This document shows, one piece after another, positions 7,121-29,522 of a DNA stretch of 64,000 nucleotides. The stretch covers positions 1,035-65,034 of the forward strand of contig JACPOW010000001.1 of assembly GCA_016191335.1 (NCBI GenBank), written 5' to 3'. This stretch comes from Elusimicrobiota bacterium (GTDB lineage: Bacteria > Elusimicrobiota > Elusimicrobia > UBA1565 > UBA9628). Within the stretch, counting starts at the first letter, position 1. The number at the start of each line of letters is the position of its first letter. The notes beneath the pieces are model-generated. The model searched no databases. It was not told where the DNA came from and saw only the letters and a list, made by a program, of their open reading frames with translations. The translations under genes were made by a program, and so were the position numbers.

Positions 7121-7148
7121 AAAAAATAGAAGCGGCGTTAGCCGCTTC
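7121..7148 (-). terminator. Rho-independent terminator downstream of msrAB
   Basis: The minus strand reads GAAGCGGC-TAAC-GCCGCTTC (perfect 8-bp stem) followed by TATTTTTTGG. Confidence 0.7.
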
Positions 7149-7323
7149 CCTGGACTCATCCGGTTGAGGCCGGATCGTGGATACCCCGAGGCCGATTCCC
7201 CGAGCTACAGAGTTACTGTAGTTATGATAGTCCGGCCTGAGCGTGCCATCGAGGGTCTTACGGCCCAGATGACACTGGGTCTGACAGTTTTTGGGCGTCA
7301 GCCCAACTTAGATCAACTTCGCC

Positions 7324-23300: not shown

Positions 23301-24923
23301 GGCGTCGGCGGATCCGACGCGGTAGTGGTAGAGGGTCCCGGTGGAGAGCCCGCTCAGGAACGCGTCGTGGACGGCGACGGTGGACGGGTCGGGCGCCGTG
23401 AGACCGCCGTAGGCCGTGCTCGTGCCGTACTCGACCCGGGAGGTCGCGGGCTCGCCGGTGACCCAGGCGATGGCCGCGTAGTCGATGCCCACGGCCGTGA
23501 CGGCCGCCGAACCGATGAGCGGCGGCGTGTTGTCCACCGTGACGGAAACGGCCGCGGCGGTCGAGGCGTTGCCCGCCGTGTCCCACGCCACCGCGCCCAG
23601 GCTGTGGAGCCCGTCGCTCGACAGCGCGGTGTTCCAGTCGAGCCCGTAGGGCGCGACGGCGTCGGGGGGCCCCAGGTCCTCGCCGTCGAGCCGGAACTGA
23701 ACCGTCGCCACGGCGACGCCGTCGAACGCCGCCGCGGCCACCGCGACGGATCCCGCGATCGTCGCCCCTCCGGCGGGCGATGAGATCGCCACCGTCGGCG
23801 GCGTGAGGTCAGGAGCGACGAGGGTCGAGAAGGAGGAGTCGCCCGAGACGGCGAGGTTTCCCGCGGCGTCGGCCGAGCGGACCCGGTAATGATACGGCGT
23901 CCCGGCGGCGAGCCCGGTCAAGAGCCGGACGTGGCTGGTGACGGTCGACGCGTCGAGCGCCGTGAGGCTCCCGTAGGCGGTGCTCGTGCCGTACTCGACC
24001 TGAGAGCTCGAGGGCTCGTTCGTGAACCACGACACCGCGGCCGAGCTCGAGCCTATGCCCCCGACGGCGGCCGAGCTGATGACGGGTGAAGTGTTGTCCA
24101 CCGTGACGGAGACGGCCGCGGAGGTCGAGGCGTTGCCCGCCGCGTCCCACGCCACGGCGCTCAGGCTGTGCGCGCCGTCGCTCGACAGGACGGTGTTCCA
24201 GCTCGCCGCGTAGGGCGCCAGGAGGTCCGGCGGGCCGAGGGCGGCGCCGTCGAGCTTGAACTGGACCGTCGTCACGGCCACGTTGTCCGAGGCCGCCGCC
24301 TGGACCGTGCGCAGGCCCCGCACCACCGCGCCGCCCGTGGGGGACGAGATGGTCACCGTGGGCGGAACGCCATCGGGGCCGGACGCCGTGAATACGACGT
24401 CGACCCAGTAGTTGCTGGACCGCGTGCCGCGGTTCGGGAAGGCCGCGGCGCTCGAGTAGACGTATAAGCCGTTGACCCCGTCGAGCCCGTCCCGCAGGGC
24501 GTGCAGCGGCGGATTGTCGATCCCCGCGGCGGAGAAGGTGAGCCGAGTGACCGCGTAGACCGCCGCGGTATGATAGGAAGCGACGTAGGTCGTCCCGGCC
24601 TGGATCGCGATGGGAGACGCGAAGCTCGCCGACTGCCAGCCCGTCGCGGTCTCCCCCGTGAAGGTCACGGAGCCGAGGAGAGCGCCCGTGTTCGTCCAGA
24701 GATGACCCGTGTGCGCGCCGGTGTTCCCCGCGGTCTTATAGAAGCGCAGGCCCGTGATCTGGCCCGCCGAGTCCGCGCGGAAGCGCACGCCGAGCTCGAC
24801 GGAACGGGAGTTGGGGCTGGAATCGCCCGCGGCGGGCAGCTGGGTCGTGAAAATGGACGCCGCGCGAGCCGTACCGGTCAGGAACAGCGCGGACAGAAGG
24901 AGCGGCAGGAAACGGATGGACAC
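20367..24923 (-). CDS. 1518-aa secreted multidomain protein: DUF4082-like, three Ig-like/FN3-like modules, ConA/LamG-like domains, T9SS-type C-terminal sorting domain
   Basis: GTG start and signal peptide MSIRFLPLLLSALFLTGTARA. The C-terminal ~95 aa (YAFPNPSRRGERVTIRL...VDVDIFDLSGRRV...HWDVRG...AVYLYSVNA...GKVALIK) fit the T9SS type-A/FlgD-Ig-like CTD pattern. Confidence 0.85.
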   Translation of the reverse strand: MSIRFLPLLLSALFLTGTARAASIFTTQLPAAGDSSPNSRSVELGVRFRADSAGQITGLRFYKTAGNTGAHTGHLWTNTGALLGSVTFTGETATGWQSASFASPIAIQAGTTYVASYHTAAVYAVTRLTFSAAGIDNPPLHALRDGLDGVNGLYVYSSAAAFPNRGTRSSNYWVDVVFTASGPDGVPPTVTISSPTGGAVVRGLRTVQAAASDNVAVTTVQFKLDGAALGPPDLLAPYAASWNTVLSSDGAHSLSAVAWDAAGNASTSAAVSVTVDNTSPVISSAAVGGIGSSSAAVSWFTNEPSSSQVEYGTSTAYGSLTALDASTVTSHVRLLTGLAAGTPYHYRVRSADAAGNLAVSGDSSFSTLVAPDLTPPTVAISSPAGGATIAGSVAVAAAAFDGVAVATVQFRLDGEDLGPPDAVAPYGLDWNTALSSDGLHSLGAVAWDTAGNASTAAAVSVTVDNTPPLIGSAAVTAVGIDYAAIAWVTGEPATSRVEYGTSTAYGGLTAPDPSTVAVHDAFLSGLSTGTLYHYRVGSADALGNLAVSADATFTTAPSSPAVSFFDDFSSYTPDVCLVDGAVFGPWTSVFNGYGCTSVRTDGGRSWLEESPFASASSSETHAALVSGLSFASPMTLSADLRTTAQLRTGSPPNPWEAAWVVWDYADNAHFYYFIPKPDGWELGKADPAYPGGQRFLTTGSSPVFPIGGAYHVKIAQRQNVLSAFVDGVLITTFTDAQRPYTSGRISLYTEDASARFTNVAVNVATPTVSVLSPQDGAVLAGTVAVTAAAFDDVAVATVQFRLDGANLGPPDAAAPYAAVWDTAVSSEGGHSLTALAWDADGNASTSAAVAVTVDHTAPVISSVVVADLGISSAALAWVTDEPSTSRVDYGTSAAYGSSTAPDASTSTVHTRSVGGLSAGTLYHYRVGSADAAGNLAFSGDGTFTTSPSGAGCLTSAGAWRNEAIPPQVSSFTVSFDVTPSSAGMESSVGLSGGAAGSLSALAAGVRFNSQGFIDVRYSTAYARMSTVAYSTGTSYRFDLRVNASAHIFDVYVTSPGAPRVLLARNYTFRSNHSTATVLDNLGFLASPGAATMCNLTVAASTVPWWDGIRELYATAGGSKTWYSSWDNGINRSFGFARDPIDPWFDAAHGTANYLIDAASGVFKISGSAPRMYIHHPEFVKGSSSMTVANSHAKQWHDVEMTVYAMRVADSNVAYAGIDGAARTNHGTTGSETAQLCDTRGVGARIRYDGHVDFYKETRHPTSYAVNNTTTTFWPVSASMPFNVWIGHKYVVYDLPDGNVMVEHYMDMTDGAGGGSWFLVNRFEDNGSAWGDGTPCAAGVNPQERLTNGSGRPGSESGLPNATVYFRSDGVGTNGLLYKKMSVREIVAPAGGAGPLAAVGAGTGSGAAPAAAEEAFLFRDLYAFPNPSRRGERVTIRLQAGVADEVDVDIFDLSGRRVNGGSLAGPVLLDDGNGKGAQYTYDYHWDVRGAASAVYLYSVNARKQGRPAIGRTGKVALIK
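22068..24377 (-). repeat. three ~190-codon paralogous coding modules inside the cargo gene
   Basis: Copies at about 23814-24377, 23244-23813 and 22068-22628. Each encodes ...SSP.GGA...VQF.LDG..LGPPD..APY...W.T..SS.G.HSL.A.AWD..GNAST.AAV.VTVD.T.P, then ...V.YGTS.AYG..TA.D.ST...H......GL..GT.YHYRV.SADA.GNLA.S.D..F.T. Confidence 0.8.
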
Positions 24924-25011
24924 GCCGCGGAGTCTAGGATTTCACCCCGCGCCCGCCCATAGCAGGGCGGCAACAAAAATAAGTCGGCGAGCAATCCGGC
25001 CTACGCCGGTT

Positions 25012-25458
25012 CTACTTGGCGGCCCAGTCGACGGGGATCACGAACACGTTCTTGACGACGGTGGAGCCGCCGCCGTTGGGGACGGTCACCTTGTCGATGC
25101 CGACGCCCTTGTAGAACACCTTGTGGTGCCCCCAGATCCCGAGGTTCACGCCCTCGCCGCCGCGGCGCAGGACCAAGGTCGTCGCGCCGTTGTCGCCGCC
25201 CGCGTTCGTCACGGCGACGACGGAGAACGCCCCGTCCGCGCTGGCGTAGGTCCGGTTCTCCTGCCCCTCGCGGTCCACGGAGCAGCCCGCGTACTTCAGG
25301 TCGGCGGTGCGCGCCGCGTCGGGAACGGTGTAGTCGCTGAGCCACAGGCCGAAAGTGATCTTCTCCCAGGCCGAGGTCATCTCGTTGCGCTGGCAGGCGG
25401 CGGTTTGGGCCGAGGCGGGGACGGACAGGACGGCGGCGAGCAGGGCGGCGATGATCAT
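25012..25458 (-). CDS. secreted hypothetical protein
   Basis: 148 aa. Signal peptide MIIAALLAAVLSVPASA. TATAAT and a GGAGGT Shine-Dalgarno upstream on the minus strand. Confidence 0.65.
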   Translation of the reverse strand: MIIAALLAAVLSVPASAQTAACQRNEMTSAWEKITFGLWLSDYTVPDAARTADLKYAGCSVDREGQENRTYASADGAFSVVAVTNAGGDNGATTLVLRRGGEGVNLGIWGHHKVFYKGVGIDKVTVPNGGGSTVVKNVFVIPVDWAAK

Positions 25459-25551
25459 GAACGGGTACCTCCGGGCCGGAATAGCCCTGTGGTTATTATA
25501 ACCCGAATCGGCCTCGCCGCATGGGCCGAAAGGCCCTGACCACTTAGGTGA

Positions 25552-25977
25552 CTATTTGTCCTTGATGGAGGACTTCTTGTCGAGCCAGACGCCGAGGATG
25601 GCGTGGGTCCGCTTGGCGATGCCGAGCTCGTTCTCGTAGTCCTCGAGGAACTTCACGAAGGCCTTGTTCTCCTCGGGGGTGTGCGAGCCCTTGGTGTAGG
25701 CGCGGTAGTAGGACTGGCCGTTCTCGAAGTACTCGACGCGCACGGCCAGGTCGCGGGCGACCTCGCCGGCGGTGTCGAGCGTGCCCTTCGGCCGCGCGGG
25801 GACGGCCGGCGGGAGGAGAGGCGCGGGCTTCGTCTCGACGGCTATGACGGAAACGTTCGCCGCCGGTGCGGCGGACGTCGACGCGATGACCGCGGCGCCC
25901 GGCATGCCGGGCAGCGGCGGGAGCTCGGCGGCGCGGACGGACGGGACGGCCAGCAGGAGGAAAAGGGTCGTGATCAT
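25552..25977 (-). CDS. secreted hypothetical protein
   Basis: 141 aa. Signal peptide MITTLFLLLAVPSVRA, a Pro/Ala linker, then a small C-terminal domain. Confidence 0.6.
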   Translation of the reverse strand: MITTLFLLLAVPSVRAAELPPLPGMPGAAVIASTSAAPAANVSVIAVETKPAPLLPPAVPARPKGTLDTAGEVARDLAVRVEYFENGQSYYRAYTKGSHTPEENKAFVKFLEDYENELGIAKRTHAILGVWLDKKSSIKDK

Positions 25978-26072
25978 CCCCGAATCCTACCATTCGCGCG
26001 ACGACGGCGGCCATCACTTGACGGGGACGCGGAAACACTTTTCACGCGAAAATTTTTTACCGTGGGTGGGTC

Positions 26073-26100
26073 TTGACGCCGGGGGTTTCGGGGCTATACT
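26073..26100 (+). promoter_or_regulatory. near-consensus sigma70-type promoter TTGACG-N16-TATACT with no downstream CDS
   Basis: Sequence cTTGACGccgggggtttcggggcTATACTcatcgca. The next recognisable plus-strand gene is 2.8 kb away. Confidence 0.6.
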
Positions 26101-26106
26101 CATCGC

Positions 26107-26346
26107 ATACCCGCTCCGAAACCGGTGTGCAGTCGGTGCCGCGAAGTGGACGCCGAGTTGAGGCCGAGGCCGTAACCGGCGATGAAGTGAGTGGCAGTCG
26201 GAGCGCAGTCGCAAGCCGTAGTATCGGGCGCGTCGTCGCGGGAGTTCCCGTCGAGACGCGAGGGTGCGCCCGGCGTTACGGGTTCGGGGCGGGTTCTGTG
26301 AGGCGCCGAGGCGGTCCCCTAGTGGACGCCGGTCTCGGCGCCTCCT
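26107..26346 (+). ncRNA. candidate structured small RNA (~240 nt); 6S-like rod is one possibility, identity unknown
   Basis: Bounded by the promoter and a strong hairpin. 26109-26120 (ACCCGCUCCGAA) pairs 12/12 (one G-U) with 26283-26294, then an A.G mismatch and 3 more bp. This encloses ~187 nt. The overlapping 91-aa ORF starts inside the -35 box. Confidence 0.5.
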
Positions 26347-26354
26347 AATTTATA
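26300..26354 (+). terminator. long GC hairpin followed by a short T-rich tail; probably a bidirectional stop for the sRNA and the convergent S41 gene
   Basis: GAGGCGCCGAG (26300-26310) pairs perfectly with CTCGGCGCCTC (26334-26344). Followed by CTAATTTATA. Confidence 0.55.
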
Positions 26355-26366
26355 CCCCGCCGGCCG

Positions 26367-28745
26367 CTACGGCTTCGCGGGCGCCGCGGGCGCCGGAGCC
26401 GAAGGCTCCAGCATCCCGGCCAGGGCCTTCAGGATCTTCCAGCGGTACTCGGCGAACCCCGTGCGCAGGTCCTTGGCGGTGATCTCGTAAGGGATGTCGG
26501 GGGTCACGCCCAGGTTCTCGATGGGCTGGCCGTTGGGCCGCTCGGCGAGGCTGCCGGTCGCGGAGAGATGGTCGATGCCGAACTGGTCGACGGAGTAGGC
26601 GTTGACGATGCCGCCCGCGCCCGCGGTGCGCACGCCGAGGATGGTGGCGCGCTTGTTGTCCTGCATGATCGCGGGGAAGAAGTCTCCGCCGGAGAAGTCC
26701 AGCGCGTTGGTCAGCAGGAGGATGGGCTTGGTGTAGCGCTCCTCCGCCTTCGGCGCGGGGTCGATGTCGGCCACGCCCTTGACGTGGATCAGGTCCGTGA
26801 AGCGGCTGCCCGCGTTGAACGCCTTGAGGATGAACTGGGCGGACTGGACCATCAGGGCCATGAACTTGCCGTCGACGGGGTAGCCCCCGGCGTTCGGCGG
26901 CTCCTCCTCCTCGCCCGCCTTCGTCTTCTTCTTCTTCTCCTTGAGCTTGGAGGCTCCGCCCTGCTGCTGGCGCATGAGCTGGAGCAGGAAGTCCGCCGAC
27001 TCGTGCGCGTCGGACTCGCCGATGATGAGGCGGTGGCGCGGCGTGACCAGCGGCTTGTCGGTCAGGTGCGAGGCGAGGGCGTAGAGGTAGAACACGCTGC
27101 CGCCGGGGTTGCTCACCTGGTCGATGACCAGCGCCTCGGTCTCGGCCTGGAACTTGGCGATGATCTTGGCGAACTCCTGGACCTCGGCGTAGTCGCCGTC
27201 GTAGGCGGCGATGCGGATGTAGCCCTTCTTCTTGCCGTCCTTCGTCTCGAAGATGTAGGCGTCGAAGTGGCTGTCCTCGTCGCTGCGCCACAGGATCTTC
27301 CCGAGGCGGGGCACGAAGCTCTTGCGGGCGCCGATCATGAACGGGTTGTCGGCGGCCTCGGAGCGCATGCTCGAGAAGAGGTCGATGAGGGGGTGCACCG
27401 CGGCGACGATGGCCTTGCCCACGGAGCTGAAGAAGCCGGCGCGGACCGGGCCGGAACGCCCGGCGGCGGCGCCGCCGATCAGGCCTTCGGGCTCGAGCAT
27501 GCCGGCGTTGCGCAGCGGCACGTCCTGGGCGAGGAGCTCGGGGGTGTAGTCCCACGGCAGGACGACCTTGTAGAACTCGCCCTTGCTGCGGATGACGATC
27601 TCCGCGCCGCCCCGGGGGATGTCGTTGTCGCCGCGCGCGCGCCGGCGGTTGGTCAGGAACATCTCGGCCATGCGCTGGTCGGTCTGGGCCGTGTTGCCCG
27701 TCATGCGGCCGGCGATCTCCGCGACGGCCTCGGCGGTCGGCTTGCCCTCGAACGCGACGAGCTCGTCGCCCATCTTGAACGGGAAGACCTCGAGCGGGAG
27801 CTTCTCCCGGTCGATGTAGGTCAGGTAGTAGCGGCCCTCGGCGCCGGCGACGGAGAAGGGGAGCTTGGAGCTCTCGGTGGAGTGGAAGGAGATGCTGACG
27901 TGGTAGTCGCGCATCGACGCGACCAGCTTCGCCAGGAGGTCCTGGAACTCGCGGGTCGTGATGGCGGGGTTCGCCAGGATGGCGGCCTTGGCCGTGTCGT
28001 ACTCGCGCTTCAGGTCGAGCTGGAAGCGGTCCTTCTTCATGTCGAGGGGCGCGTACTGCTCGGCGAAGATCGAGGCGACCTGGTACAGCGAGGCGAGCAT
28101 CCGCTGCTGCGTCTGCGCGGCGTCGGAGGCCTTGGCCGGCGCGAAGGAGGGGCGCAGGCCGTTGGAGCGGAAGGTGCGTCCGCCGCGGGCGCTCAGGTCC
28201 GACGAGGCGAAGGCGTGGACGTCGGCGTCGGAGGCCTTGGAGCCGTCGAAGATGCGGCCGATGTTGACGACCTCGACCGCGGAGACGCGGGAGGCGGACT
28301 CGCCGGCGATGGCCGAGAGGGAGGCGAGCGGCGTCGCGGTCTCCGTCGCCTCGGCCTTGGCGGACGCGTTCGCCGGCGTGACGGCGGGCGTCGCGGCGGG
28401 CGTCACGGCGGCGGCGCGGGCGGCGGACGGGACGGACGCGGGCTTCGCGGCGGCCGGCGCGGAGAGGGAGGCGGCGAGGGCGGAGGGCGCGGCGGCCGGG
28501 GCCGACAGGACGGGGGCGGCGGAGAGGAGGCCCAGCGAGTTGACGGACAGCGAGGGGATCGCGGAGACGCCGGCGTTGACGCCCGTCACGGAGGCCGCGG
28601 CGGAGGCGCCGGCGGCGGAGACGCCGGGGGTGACCCGCGCGTTGTAGGTCTGGGACCAGGCCGCGCTGCCCGGAAGGCTGAGCCCGATCGCCAAGATCAG
28701 GGTCACGGCCAGGGATTTCTTCGCGGCGGGTCGTTCAACGATCAC
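26367..28745 (-). CDS. CPAF-like S41-family serine protease with a ~200-aa Ala/Ser/Pro-rich N-terminal region
   Basis: 792 aa. Blocks recalled from Chlamydia CPAF are matched: RDYHVSISFHSTESSKLPFSV, EFAKIIAKFQAETEALVIDQVSNPGGSVFYLYALASHLTDKPL, LDFSGGDFFPAIMQDNKRATILGVRTAGAGG and IENLGVTPDI. This places the His/Ser/Glu catalytic residues. Confidence 0.75.
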   Translation of the reverse strand: MIVERPAAKKSLAVTLILAIGLSLPGSAAWSQTYNARVTPGVSAAGASAAASVTGVNAGVSAIPSLSVNSLGLLSAAPVLSAPAAAPSALAASLSAPAAAKPASVPSAARAAAVTPAATPAVTPANASAKAEATETATPLASLSAIAGESASRVSAVEVVNIGRIFDGSKASDADVHAFASSDLSARGGRTFRSNGLRPSFAPAKASDAAQTQQRMLASLYQVASIFAEQYAPLDMKKDRFQLDLKREYDTAKAAILANPAITTREFQDLLAKLVASMRDYHVSISFHSTESSKLPFSVAGAEGRYYLTYIDREKLPLEVFPFKMGDELVAFEGKPTAEAVAEIAGRMTGNTAQTDQRMAEMFLTNRRRARGDNDIPRGGAEIVIRSKGEFYKVVLPWDYTPELLAQDVPLRNAGMLEPEGLIGGAAAGRSGPVRAGFFSSVGKAIVAAVHPLIDLFSSMRSEAADNPFMIGARKSFVPRLGKILWRSDEDSHFDAYIFETKDGKKKGYIRIAAYDGDYAEVQEFAKIIAKFQAETEALVIDQVSNPGGSVFYLYALASHLTDKPLVTPRHRLIIGESDAHESADFLLQLMRQQQGGASKLKEKKKKTKAGEEEEPPNAGGYPVDGKFMALMVQSAQFILKAFNAGSRFTDLIHVKGVADIDPAPKAEERYTKPILLLTNALDFSGGDFFPAIMQDNKRATILGVRTAGAGGIVNAYSVDQFGIDHLSATGSLAERPNGQPIENLGVTPDIPYEITAKDLRTGFAEYRWKILKALAGMLEPSAPAPAAPAKP

Positions 28746-28949
28746 TTGAGCCTCCTGCGGCCACTGCTGTTTCGATAACGGGATTATGCGCCAATAGCGC
28801 TTTCAAGGGGTGAGCAAGAGGGCCAATAGACCCACGGCAATGGGCCCACGCGAGTTTGGGCCCTCTGGTCTTACAAAAGCACCTATCGGCCCCCCGTCGG
28901 CGGACGGGAAAACCCTTTGGCTCCTCTGTTGCATGGATATGTAGGCGTT

Positions 28950-29522
28950 ATGTTAGAGATACGCTTTCACGGCCGCGGCGGCCAAGGGACGGTCCTCGCC
29001 GCCAAGATCATCGCCGACGCGGTCCTGCGCCAGGGCGAGAAGCAGTGCCTGGCGATCCCGGAGTTCGGCGTCGAGCGCCGCGGCGCGCCGGTCATGGCCT
29101 ACGCCCGCGTCAGCGACCAGCCCATCCTCGCGCGCACCAAGATCTACGCGCCGGACGCCCTGGTCGTCCTCGACCCCACCCTATATACGTCCGACATCCT
29201 GAAAGGGATCAAGCCCGGCGGCACGGTCCTGACCAACAGCGACCCCGCCGACATCCCGAAGCTCTCCGCCCGCGCGCCGGGCCTCAAGTTCATCGCCGTC
29301 CCCGCGCACAATATCGCGCTCGAGCTCAAGCTCGGCTCCGCCTCGAGCCCGATCGTCAACACCGCGATGTGCGGCGCCGCCTGCGCCGTGTTCGGCCTGT
29401 GCGGCCTCGACGCGCTGCTCGAGTGCGTCCGCGAGGCCGTGCCGGTCAAGGCCGACGCCAACGTCGAGGCCGCGCGCCGCGCCTTCGAAGCCGCCCGGGA
29501 GGTCCTGCATGCCTCTGCTTGA
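28950..29522 (+). CDS. 2-oxoacid:ferredoxin oxidoreductase, gamma subunit
   Basis: 190 aa from ATG 28950. MLEIRFHGRGGQGTVLAAKII is the typical gamma-subunit N-terminus. Confidence 0.85.
   Translation: MLEIRFHGRGGQGTVLAAKIIADAVLRQGEKQCLAIPEFGVERRGAPVMAYARVSDQPILARTKIYAPDALVVLDPTLYTSDILKGIKPGGTVLTNSDPADIPKLSARAPGLKFIAVPAHNIALELKLGSASSPIVNTAMCGAACAVFGLCGLDALLECVREAVPVKADANVEAARRAFEAAREVLHASA

Follow-up and report, generated by a model that had tools for sequence, protein, structure and literature searches.

A previously undescribed structured small RNA, abundant and processed, encoded in an intergenic gap of groundwater Elusimicrobiota

Introduction

In the genome of an uncultured Elusimicrobiota bacterium, a near-consensus promoter points across an intergenic gap towards an intrinsic terminator, and the question raised by this locus is what is made from it. 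The unit occupies positions 26073-26354 of the stretch of DNA analysed here (64,000 nt in all, hereafter the window). To our knowledge nothing is known of the RNA biology of Elusimicrobiota of this order, none of which is in culture, and we found nothing in the literature on the RNA described below. A prior reading of the window, made from its letters (the sequence-only reading), had proposed a structured RNA that was either 6S-like or a novel sRNA. We find that the gap harbours the gene for a structured small RNA, not described before, that groundwater Elusimicrobiota express, and we are highly confident that its product is a real, processed non-coding RNA.

Results

A transcribed promoter-to-terminator unit

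The unit and its divergent neighbour comprise the following features.

25552-25977, minus strand: gene for a 141-aa signal-peptide protein, divergent from the RNA; a conserved neighbour with no Pfam match
26048-26100, plus strand: promoter, with an A/T-rich upstream tract (26048-26061), an extended -35 element TGGGTCTTGACG (26067-26078) and the -10 box TATACT (26095-26100), from sequence and scan
26107-26352, plus strand: primary transcript (~246 nt) that runs from the start site as far as the terminator T-run, as given by metatranscriptome contig ends
26300-26352, plus strand: conserved 3' hairpin and terminator, consisting of a 13-bp stem, one bulged G, a further 2 bp, 2 nt bulged on the 3' side, 3 bp more and a hexaloop, followed by CUAAUUUAU

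The promoter couples TTGACG (26073-26078) to TATACT (26095-26100) across 16 nt, exactly where the sequence-only reading had placed it; it matches 10 of the 12 consensus positions, is surrounded by an extended TGGGTCTTGAC motif with the A/T tract upstream, and is retained in all homologues of the unit. A scan of 24000-29000 returns two promoter-like sites against 0.4 expected, and this is the better of the two. At the other end, the 11-bp perfect GC-rich hairpin that had been claimed is present (arms GAGGCGCCGAG/CUCGGCGCCUC), can be extended to 18 bp (26300-26344) and is followed directly by CUAAUUUAU. Both flanking genes, encoding the 141-aa protein and a PDZ/S41 protease, lie on the minus strand, which excludes that the unit is a leader or a trailer. 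The 301-nt region occurs once in its own genome.

GGGYCTTGAC-N-TAYAMT also stands upstream of ordinary genes in this genome, indicating a general strong promoter type, and we therefore rejected the idea of an RNA-specific promoter motif. Fifteen sites in the genome (G000) carry the extended -35 in the form GGGYCTTGAC-N15-19-TAYAMT, for example at 37410 of contig C79 and 13512 of contig C128 (both minus strand), and this appears to be the strong promoter consensus of the organism. Two of the 15 precede long structured-looking leaders, which could be riboswitches.

The sequence-only reading had called for transcript coverage and 5'-end mapping, which we drew from Logan assembled contigs aligned to the window rather than from raw reads. 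Many small metatranscriptomes from groundwater, river, freshwater, soil, biofilm and estuary contain 40-60% of the sampled words of the RNA. One contig (X32) begins exactly at 26107, 7 nt past the -10 box, and another (X36) extends to 26351 in the terminator, so that the predicted start and stop are real. Contig depth reaches 577 in a 41-Mb run (X25) and 107 in another (X29), versus 0 for every gene in 20 kb; the RNA is the only covered feature of the organism across 20 kb of the window and is far more abundant than any mRNA of that surrounding region.

Conservation and coding potential

Of the 37 genomes of the genus, 36 contain the RNA region, with identities of 66-99%; these homologues are from Elusimicrobia or Elusimicrobiota MAGs, mostly of groundwater origin. 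Measured between the -10 box and the terminator end, the unit spans 151 to 335 nt across homologues. Even among close relatives that are 86-95% identical over the unit, body lengths differ by 1, 2, 4 or 16 nt.

These length differences, which are not multiples of three, together with the absence of whole hairpins in some species, exclude both the 91-aa ORF (26073-26348) and any other frame, and the same indel pattern rules out coding on either strand. A small-protein gene might be suggested by the open frame, which covers the whole unit, and by the three-nucleotide periodicity of G in parts of the wider RNA family described below. The first codon of the ORF would fall within the -35 element, ahead of the mapped start of transcription at 26107, and the ORF has no Pfam match; hairpin modules are gained and lost as wholes, and substitutions compensate for pairing. 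We consider this reading effectively refuted. The 91-aa frame, whose conservation as a protein the sequence-only reading had named as one finding that would overturn an RNA gene, is not conserved, and the description of the gap as devoid of a credible coding sequence stands.

No family in Rfam 15 matches the RNA, either at the gathering score on the window or at E ≤ 10 on 25900-26500; matches at E ≤ 10 are chance ones that fall outside the RNA or at its edge (ybhL, RNaseP-T and others). The sole Rfam match in the window lies elsewhere, at 7145-7215 on the minus strand, and is a 2dG-II purine riboswitch aptamer (RF03165; 74.8 bits versus a gathering score of 60). We also considered and dropped a diversity-generating-retroelement (DGR) template, a retron and a type III antitoxin: the genome holds no second copy or variable-region-like target, no reverse-transcriptase- or toxin-like ORF is evident beside the unit, where the Pfam scan covered the four flanking ORFs, and there are no long tandem units.

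Secondary structure and covariation

RNAalifold, combined with a hand-set structure, yields four helices: P1, P2, P3 and the terminator. The elements upstream of the terminator are as follows.

26109-26124, plus strand: 5' strand of P1, ACCCGCUCCGAAACCG; within-genus covariation, and compensatory changes relative to the sister genus
26151-26181, plus strand: P2 hairpin, CGCCG-A-GUU-GA-GGC-CGAG-GCC-GU-AAC-CGGCG; covariation
26190-26213, plus strand: core motif GGCAGUCGGAGCGCAGUCGCAAGC; apparently unpaired, common to the sister genus
26226-26271, plus strand: P3 hairpin, GGGC-GCGUC-UCG-CGGG-AGUU-CCCG-CGA-GACGC...GCCC; 85-93% paired in the alignment
26279-26294, plus strand: 3' strand of P1, CGGGUUCGGGGCGGGU; covariation, and a conserved 3' processing site after G26289

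P1 closes the domain just as the sequence-only reading had described, with 12 of 12 positions paired between 26109-26120 and 26283-26294 (one G-U pair included), then an A-G mismatch and 3 bp (26122-26124 with 26279-26281), and it covaries within the genus. Compared with the sister genus it carries three fully compensatory changes (CCCGUCCUGAGUCCGG/CCGGACUCAGGACGGG); between the genera CCCGCUCCGAAACCGG becomes CCCGUCCUGAGUCCGG, with five positions changed and pairing kept by matching 3' strands. The interior of P1 is multi-branched and the RNA is G-rich (40% G). Local hairpins had also been proposed within this domain, and the one cited, CGGGAGUUCCCG, proves to be the tip of a conserved hairpin.

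In P2, GGC/GCC is replaced by AGC/GCU in four sequences and GUU/AAC by GUC/GAC in one; the hairpin is missing in two loci (L021 and L025), and the short-form RNAs of a sister family have a body similar to it. P3 is missing in four loci (L018, L019, L029 and L030), which identifies it as a dispensable module. A stretch similar to the core motif, GCAGUCGGGACGUUGCAGUCGCAA, occurs in two sister-genus copies (L043 and L048), and the 6-mers most enriched across the wider family (below) likewise point to this motif.

Folding and comparative analysis, both of which had been suggested as checks, support this structure. The precursor folds at -137.6 kcal/mol (z = -4.5), a stability equalled by none of 200 shuffles; the antisense strand folds clearly worse (-112.5 versus -137.6 kcal/mol), and the G-U pairs fit the plus strand only. 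Across 26 homologues the hand-set structure has 93.7% of cells paired, versus about 41% when the partners are slid, and 14 pairs are double-changed, that is, compensatory, versus 5.5 ± 1.6 in shuffles (0/500). The terminator hairpin is 98.5% paired, with five pairs showing double changes.

Processing of the transcript

The form that dominates the metatranscriptome contigs is a shorter, processed core.

26122-26289 (about), plus strand: accumulating processed core RNA of 168 nt, from recurrent contig ends and adapters

A 5' end at 26122 recurs in five runs from four studies (X25, X27, X29/X30, X31 and X35), and in X25 an Illumina adapter directly abuts this position. The major 5' end of the accumulated RNA lies at the A-G mismatch of P1, between 26121 and 26122; further 5' ends are seen at 26107, 26118/26119, 26128 and 26131. 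Contig 3' ends fall at 26288-26312, and a precise 3' end at 26289 comes from a head-to-tail joint in X29. Since another species (L020:1750, in X64, an unrelated river study) shows an adapter abutting the corresponding position, UCGGGG|CGGG, this 3' end is both conserved and precise. The accumulated RNA lacks the 15-nt leader that holds the 5' strand of P1, and the 3' hairpin is almost absent from it, an effect that may be exaggerated by the under-representation of strong GC hairpins in RNA-seq. Sister-genus contigs seem to retain the 5' strand of P1, which has no mismatch there, and processing may differ between the genera.

The joint itself is found in a cyclic 169-nt contig of depth 107, which connects 26289 to 26122 with 1 nt of ambiguity (X29 and X30 represent one sample). 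It confirms both ends. The joint is missing from the DNA contigs, one of them from the same study, all of which are colinear, and both joined positions are independently backed as precise RNA ends; these observations speak for a reading in which P1 would bring the two cut sites together and the body would be excised as a covalently closed circle of 168/169 nt in the cell. Against such a circle, the joint is confined to one sample and absent from 15 other RNA or unlabelled runs, and a run from the same study (X25) is linear, with adapter at 26122 and sequence continuing to 26296. No run contains a ligated-flank product, RtcB was not found in the genome, and there is no Rfam match to a group I or group II intron or to a self-cleaving ribozyme at E ≤ 10. 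Library preparation that includes a ligase step, or in which templates switch, would link these true ends in the same way, and a ligation or template-switch artefact is more likely than a true cellular circle, which we regard as very doubtful.

Two related ideas were discarded. An endless ORF on the circle is suggested by 168 = 56 x 3, but in the strain with the joint the cycle measures 169 nt; and archaeal-type splicing at a bulge-helix-bulge would require the opposite polarity of stagger, as judged from coordinates.

Relationship to 6S RNA

The 168-nt core is of 6S-type size, abundant and end-processed, and the sequence-only reading had considered a 6S-like RNA compatible with the closing stem. 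The covariance-model scan that it proposed returns no 6S (RF00013 and related models) in the window at the gathering score, in 25900-26500 at E ≤ 10, or in the whole genome. The interior is multi-branched, with modules individually missing, and the accumulated form has lost the 5' strand of the closing stem; neither genus shows the conserved bubble of a 6S-type rod, and P2 or P3 is missing in some species. RF00013 finds a canonical 6S in 64 of 201 Elusimicrobiota genomes, all outside the class of the window's genome, and none in that genome, its genus, family or order, or in any listed genome of the class, which either lacks 6S or has a divergent one. The canonical Elusimicrobiota 6S RNAs are AT-rich 155-nt rods, unlike this G-rich, branched and modular RNA, which does not qualify as a 6S family member.

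A functional analogue of 6S, or of mycobacterial Ms1, is a separate matter: such an abundant, stable RNA would bind RNA polymerase and tune transcription in place of 6S. The absence of a canonical 6S match from the listed genomes of the class, the length of about 170 nt, the very high abundance and the 6S-like end processing all speak for this idea, as does the long closing rod of the sister-genus forms (P0 and a 16-17-bp P1). It is nonetheless unlikely, given that no 6S-type model matches even at E ≤ 10, that the branched interior has dispensable hairpins and no conserved central bubble, and that one strand of the closing stem is gone from the accumulated form. Moreover, the sister genus g18 has 2-5 copies, the 3'-module model matches just three of nine listed genera of the family, and the canonical Elusimicrobiota 6S RNAs bear no likeness to the RNA.

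A wider family of RNAs and a divergent neighbour gene

The RNA belongs to a modular family within the same order, the long and short forms of which share a 3' hairpin. A covariance model of this 3' module gives 2-5 matches per genome in g18 and one in a further genus (g23). Across genera the hairpin has an outer 8-bp stem, a middle stem, a 3' bulge, a 4-bp top stem and a hexaloop, with the bulge reading GCCG in the window's genus and GCU in g18; in g18, g23 and family f3, long and short RNAs alike end in a hairpin built this way. Among 185,579 species, the exact pattern of the window's genus is present in 26 genomes, with one copy in each; 24 of these records bear the name Elusimicrobia, Elusimicrobiota or Endomicrobium in their titles.

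Long forms in g18 and g23 consist of P0 and a 16-17-bp P1 rod closing a weakly structured interior of ~110 nt, which carries GAAGUGG, GUGGUUGUAGCGG and GCCGUUGCAGUCGC. Short forms, at ~90 nt, have one hairpin followed by the same 3' hairpin, and adjoin long forms, sometimes in tandem. The length from the start site to the 3' hairpin varies between 95 and 279 nt. In 17 diverse members the most enriched 6-mers are GCAGUC, GUCGCA and CAGUCG, with z of 6-7 that is partly inflated by shared ancestry, and AAGUGG is also among the most enriched words. Period-3 G is significant in several members, in which 11-12 of 12 triplets read NNG and hexamer repeats occur; for the window's own copy p is about 0.14.

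Neighbourhoods of the g18 paralogues have no common partner gene. In two g18 genomes (G233 and G325), two long-form paralogues (L040 and L051) are divergent from a gene with a RecA-like N-terminus, as judged by reading, and another paralogue (L049) adjoins a tRNA gene, which indicates spread to unrelated contexts.

Most genomes of the genus, and g18 as well, keep the divergent 141-aa gene in synteny, and beside its homologues across the order (L066-L095, f3 included) stands a hairpin-terminated small RNA, usually divergent. In f3 an ECF sigma factor gene follows the 141-aa homologue (L091:1165-1734), and the short forms keep a 5' GCCGAGUAGGUG that resembles an arm of P2. The same f3 locus (genome G048) also holds a separate promoter-to-terminator RNA of ~230 nt with a different terminator (L091:175-420, plus strand); it is mostly made of GUNGNC hexamer repeats, with 12 of 12 period-3 G, and is convergent with a short hairpin-terminated RNA. 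An antisense frame of NNC codons at L091 (an N/D/H/G/Y-rich ORF) was rejected, as it has no convincing start or ribosome-binding site.

Discussion

The sequence-only reading's other proposal, a novel sRNA, has been borne out by an RNA that is conserved, structured and very highly transcribed, with its start and terminator where they were predicted. We judge the chances evenly balanced that, taken as a whole, it is best explained as a processed structured sRNA that undergoes P1-directed cutting and serves as a protein-binding decoy or scaffold. A consensus housekeeping-type promoter gives rise to a precursor of about 246 nt (26107-26352) ending at the intrinsic-terminator hairpin, and the covarying P1 pairs the two flanks of the body; in this model, P1 would serve as a processing stem. 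A single endonucleolytic cut may then fall at the A-G mismatch of P1, after which the 3' side would be trimmed to 7-8 nt past the remaining 3-4-bp stem, the overhang that a stalled 3' exonuclease would leave. The mature RNA would act by binding protein rather than by mRNA pairing or translation, displaying the reiterated motifs GCAGUCGC, GAAGUGG and GCCGU (and, in relatives, period-3 G tracts) on a modular frame that gains and loses hairpins and is multiplied to the 2-5 paralogues of the sister genus. Candidate partners are RNA polymerase or two RRM-type proteins; the genome encodes two RRM_1 proteins (C69:17930-18139 and C39:3757-3966).

The protein-binding mode of action is itself a tentative hypothesis, somewhat short of an even chance. 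We prefer it because the body looks like short motifs arrayed in expandable number on a frame that stabilises them, because the terminator that chaperone-dependent pairing sRNAs need is discarded, and because Hfq and CsrA, like RtcB, were not found in the genome (G000), in which the two RRM_1 proteins are present.

These same features bear on a trans-acting base-pairing sRNA, possibly linked to the envelope, that would use the P2 loop or the core motif as its seed and be co-inherited with the secreted-protein gene, which in f3 heads an operon that includes an ECF sigma factor. The divergent synteny with the 141-aa gene, conserved across the order, is in keeping with this possibility, as are the ECF sigma gene that follows its homologue in f3 and the resemblance of the conserved 5' GCCGAGUAGGUG of the f3 short forms to a P2 arm. 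The genome has no Hfq, however, and the terminator hairpin, usually kept by chaperone-dependent sRNAs, is trimmed off; the promoter is of the general housekeeping rather than the ECF type, and the abundance is far above that of typical regulatory sRNAs. We find a base-pairing sRNA quite improbable.

Comparison with known systems places the RNA near several classes. Like 6S (SsrS, RF00013) and Ms1, it has a gene of its own under a strong housekeeping promoter and yields a very abundant, stable RNA of ~170 nt, which arises by maturation of both ends of a longer precursor with pairing ends, and it is found in a lineage with no detectable canonical 6S; unlike them, it has no model match, is branched and modular rather than a rod with a central bubble, has a closing stem that is cut in the accumulated form, has paralogues in the sister genus and is narrowly distributed. 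The variable length (95-279 nt), the apparently reiterated short motifs in units that expand and contract, the multiple paralogues in some genomes, the high expression and the intrinsic terminator recall CsrB/CsrC, RsmX/Y/Z and CrcZ. The motifs here, however, are GCAGUCGC, GAAGUGG and (NNG)n rather than GGA or CA-rich ones, CsrA and Hfq are absent from the genome, and the terminator is removed. A GGA sponge of the CsrB/Rsm kind does not fit an RNA with four GGA, counted by reading, in a genome with no CsrA, nor does an Hfq-dependent sRNA fit one with no Hfq and an accumulated form from which the hairpin and U-tail are gone.

As in the flanking helices of rRNA (RNase III) and in 6S and tmRNA maturation, a covarying flank helix is not kept intact and both ends are precise; unlike the 2-nt overhang of RNase III processing stems, the ends here are offset by ~8 bp and leave an 8-nt 3' overhang. 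ARAGORN detects no tmRNA gene in the assembly, which is 94% complete. A 3' hairpin that is almost the same in several RNAs with differing bodies is also known from Qrr1-5, the csRNAs and LhrC1-5, but here the shared hairpin bears an asymmetric bulge that is conserved, and trimming removes the hairpin from the long form.

Were the circle true, it would represent a new route to stable circular RNA in bacteria and a new kind of bacterial circular RNA; that the RNA is cut out at two fixed sites of a covarying stem and closed in this way, with no RtcB and no recognisable intron or ribozyme, in a family that would also replace the missing 6S-type RNA of the class, strikes us as highly improbable. 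The RNA is the dominant transcript of its locus in groundwater, river, estuary and biofilm metatranscriptomes. With this dominance, its precise processing, its modular and expandable body and its order-wide family, it is a strong candidate to found a new class of abundant RNA, whether regulatory or housekeeping, and offers a way into post-transcriptional control in a phylum that lacks the customary RNA chaperones.
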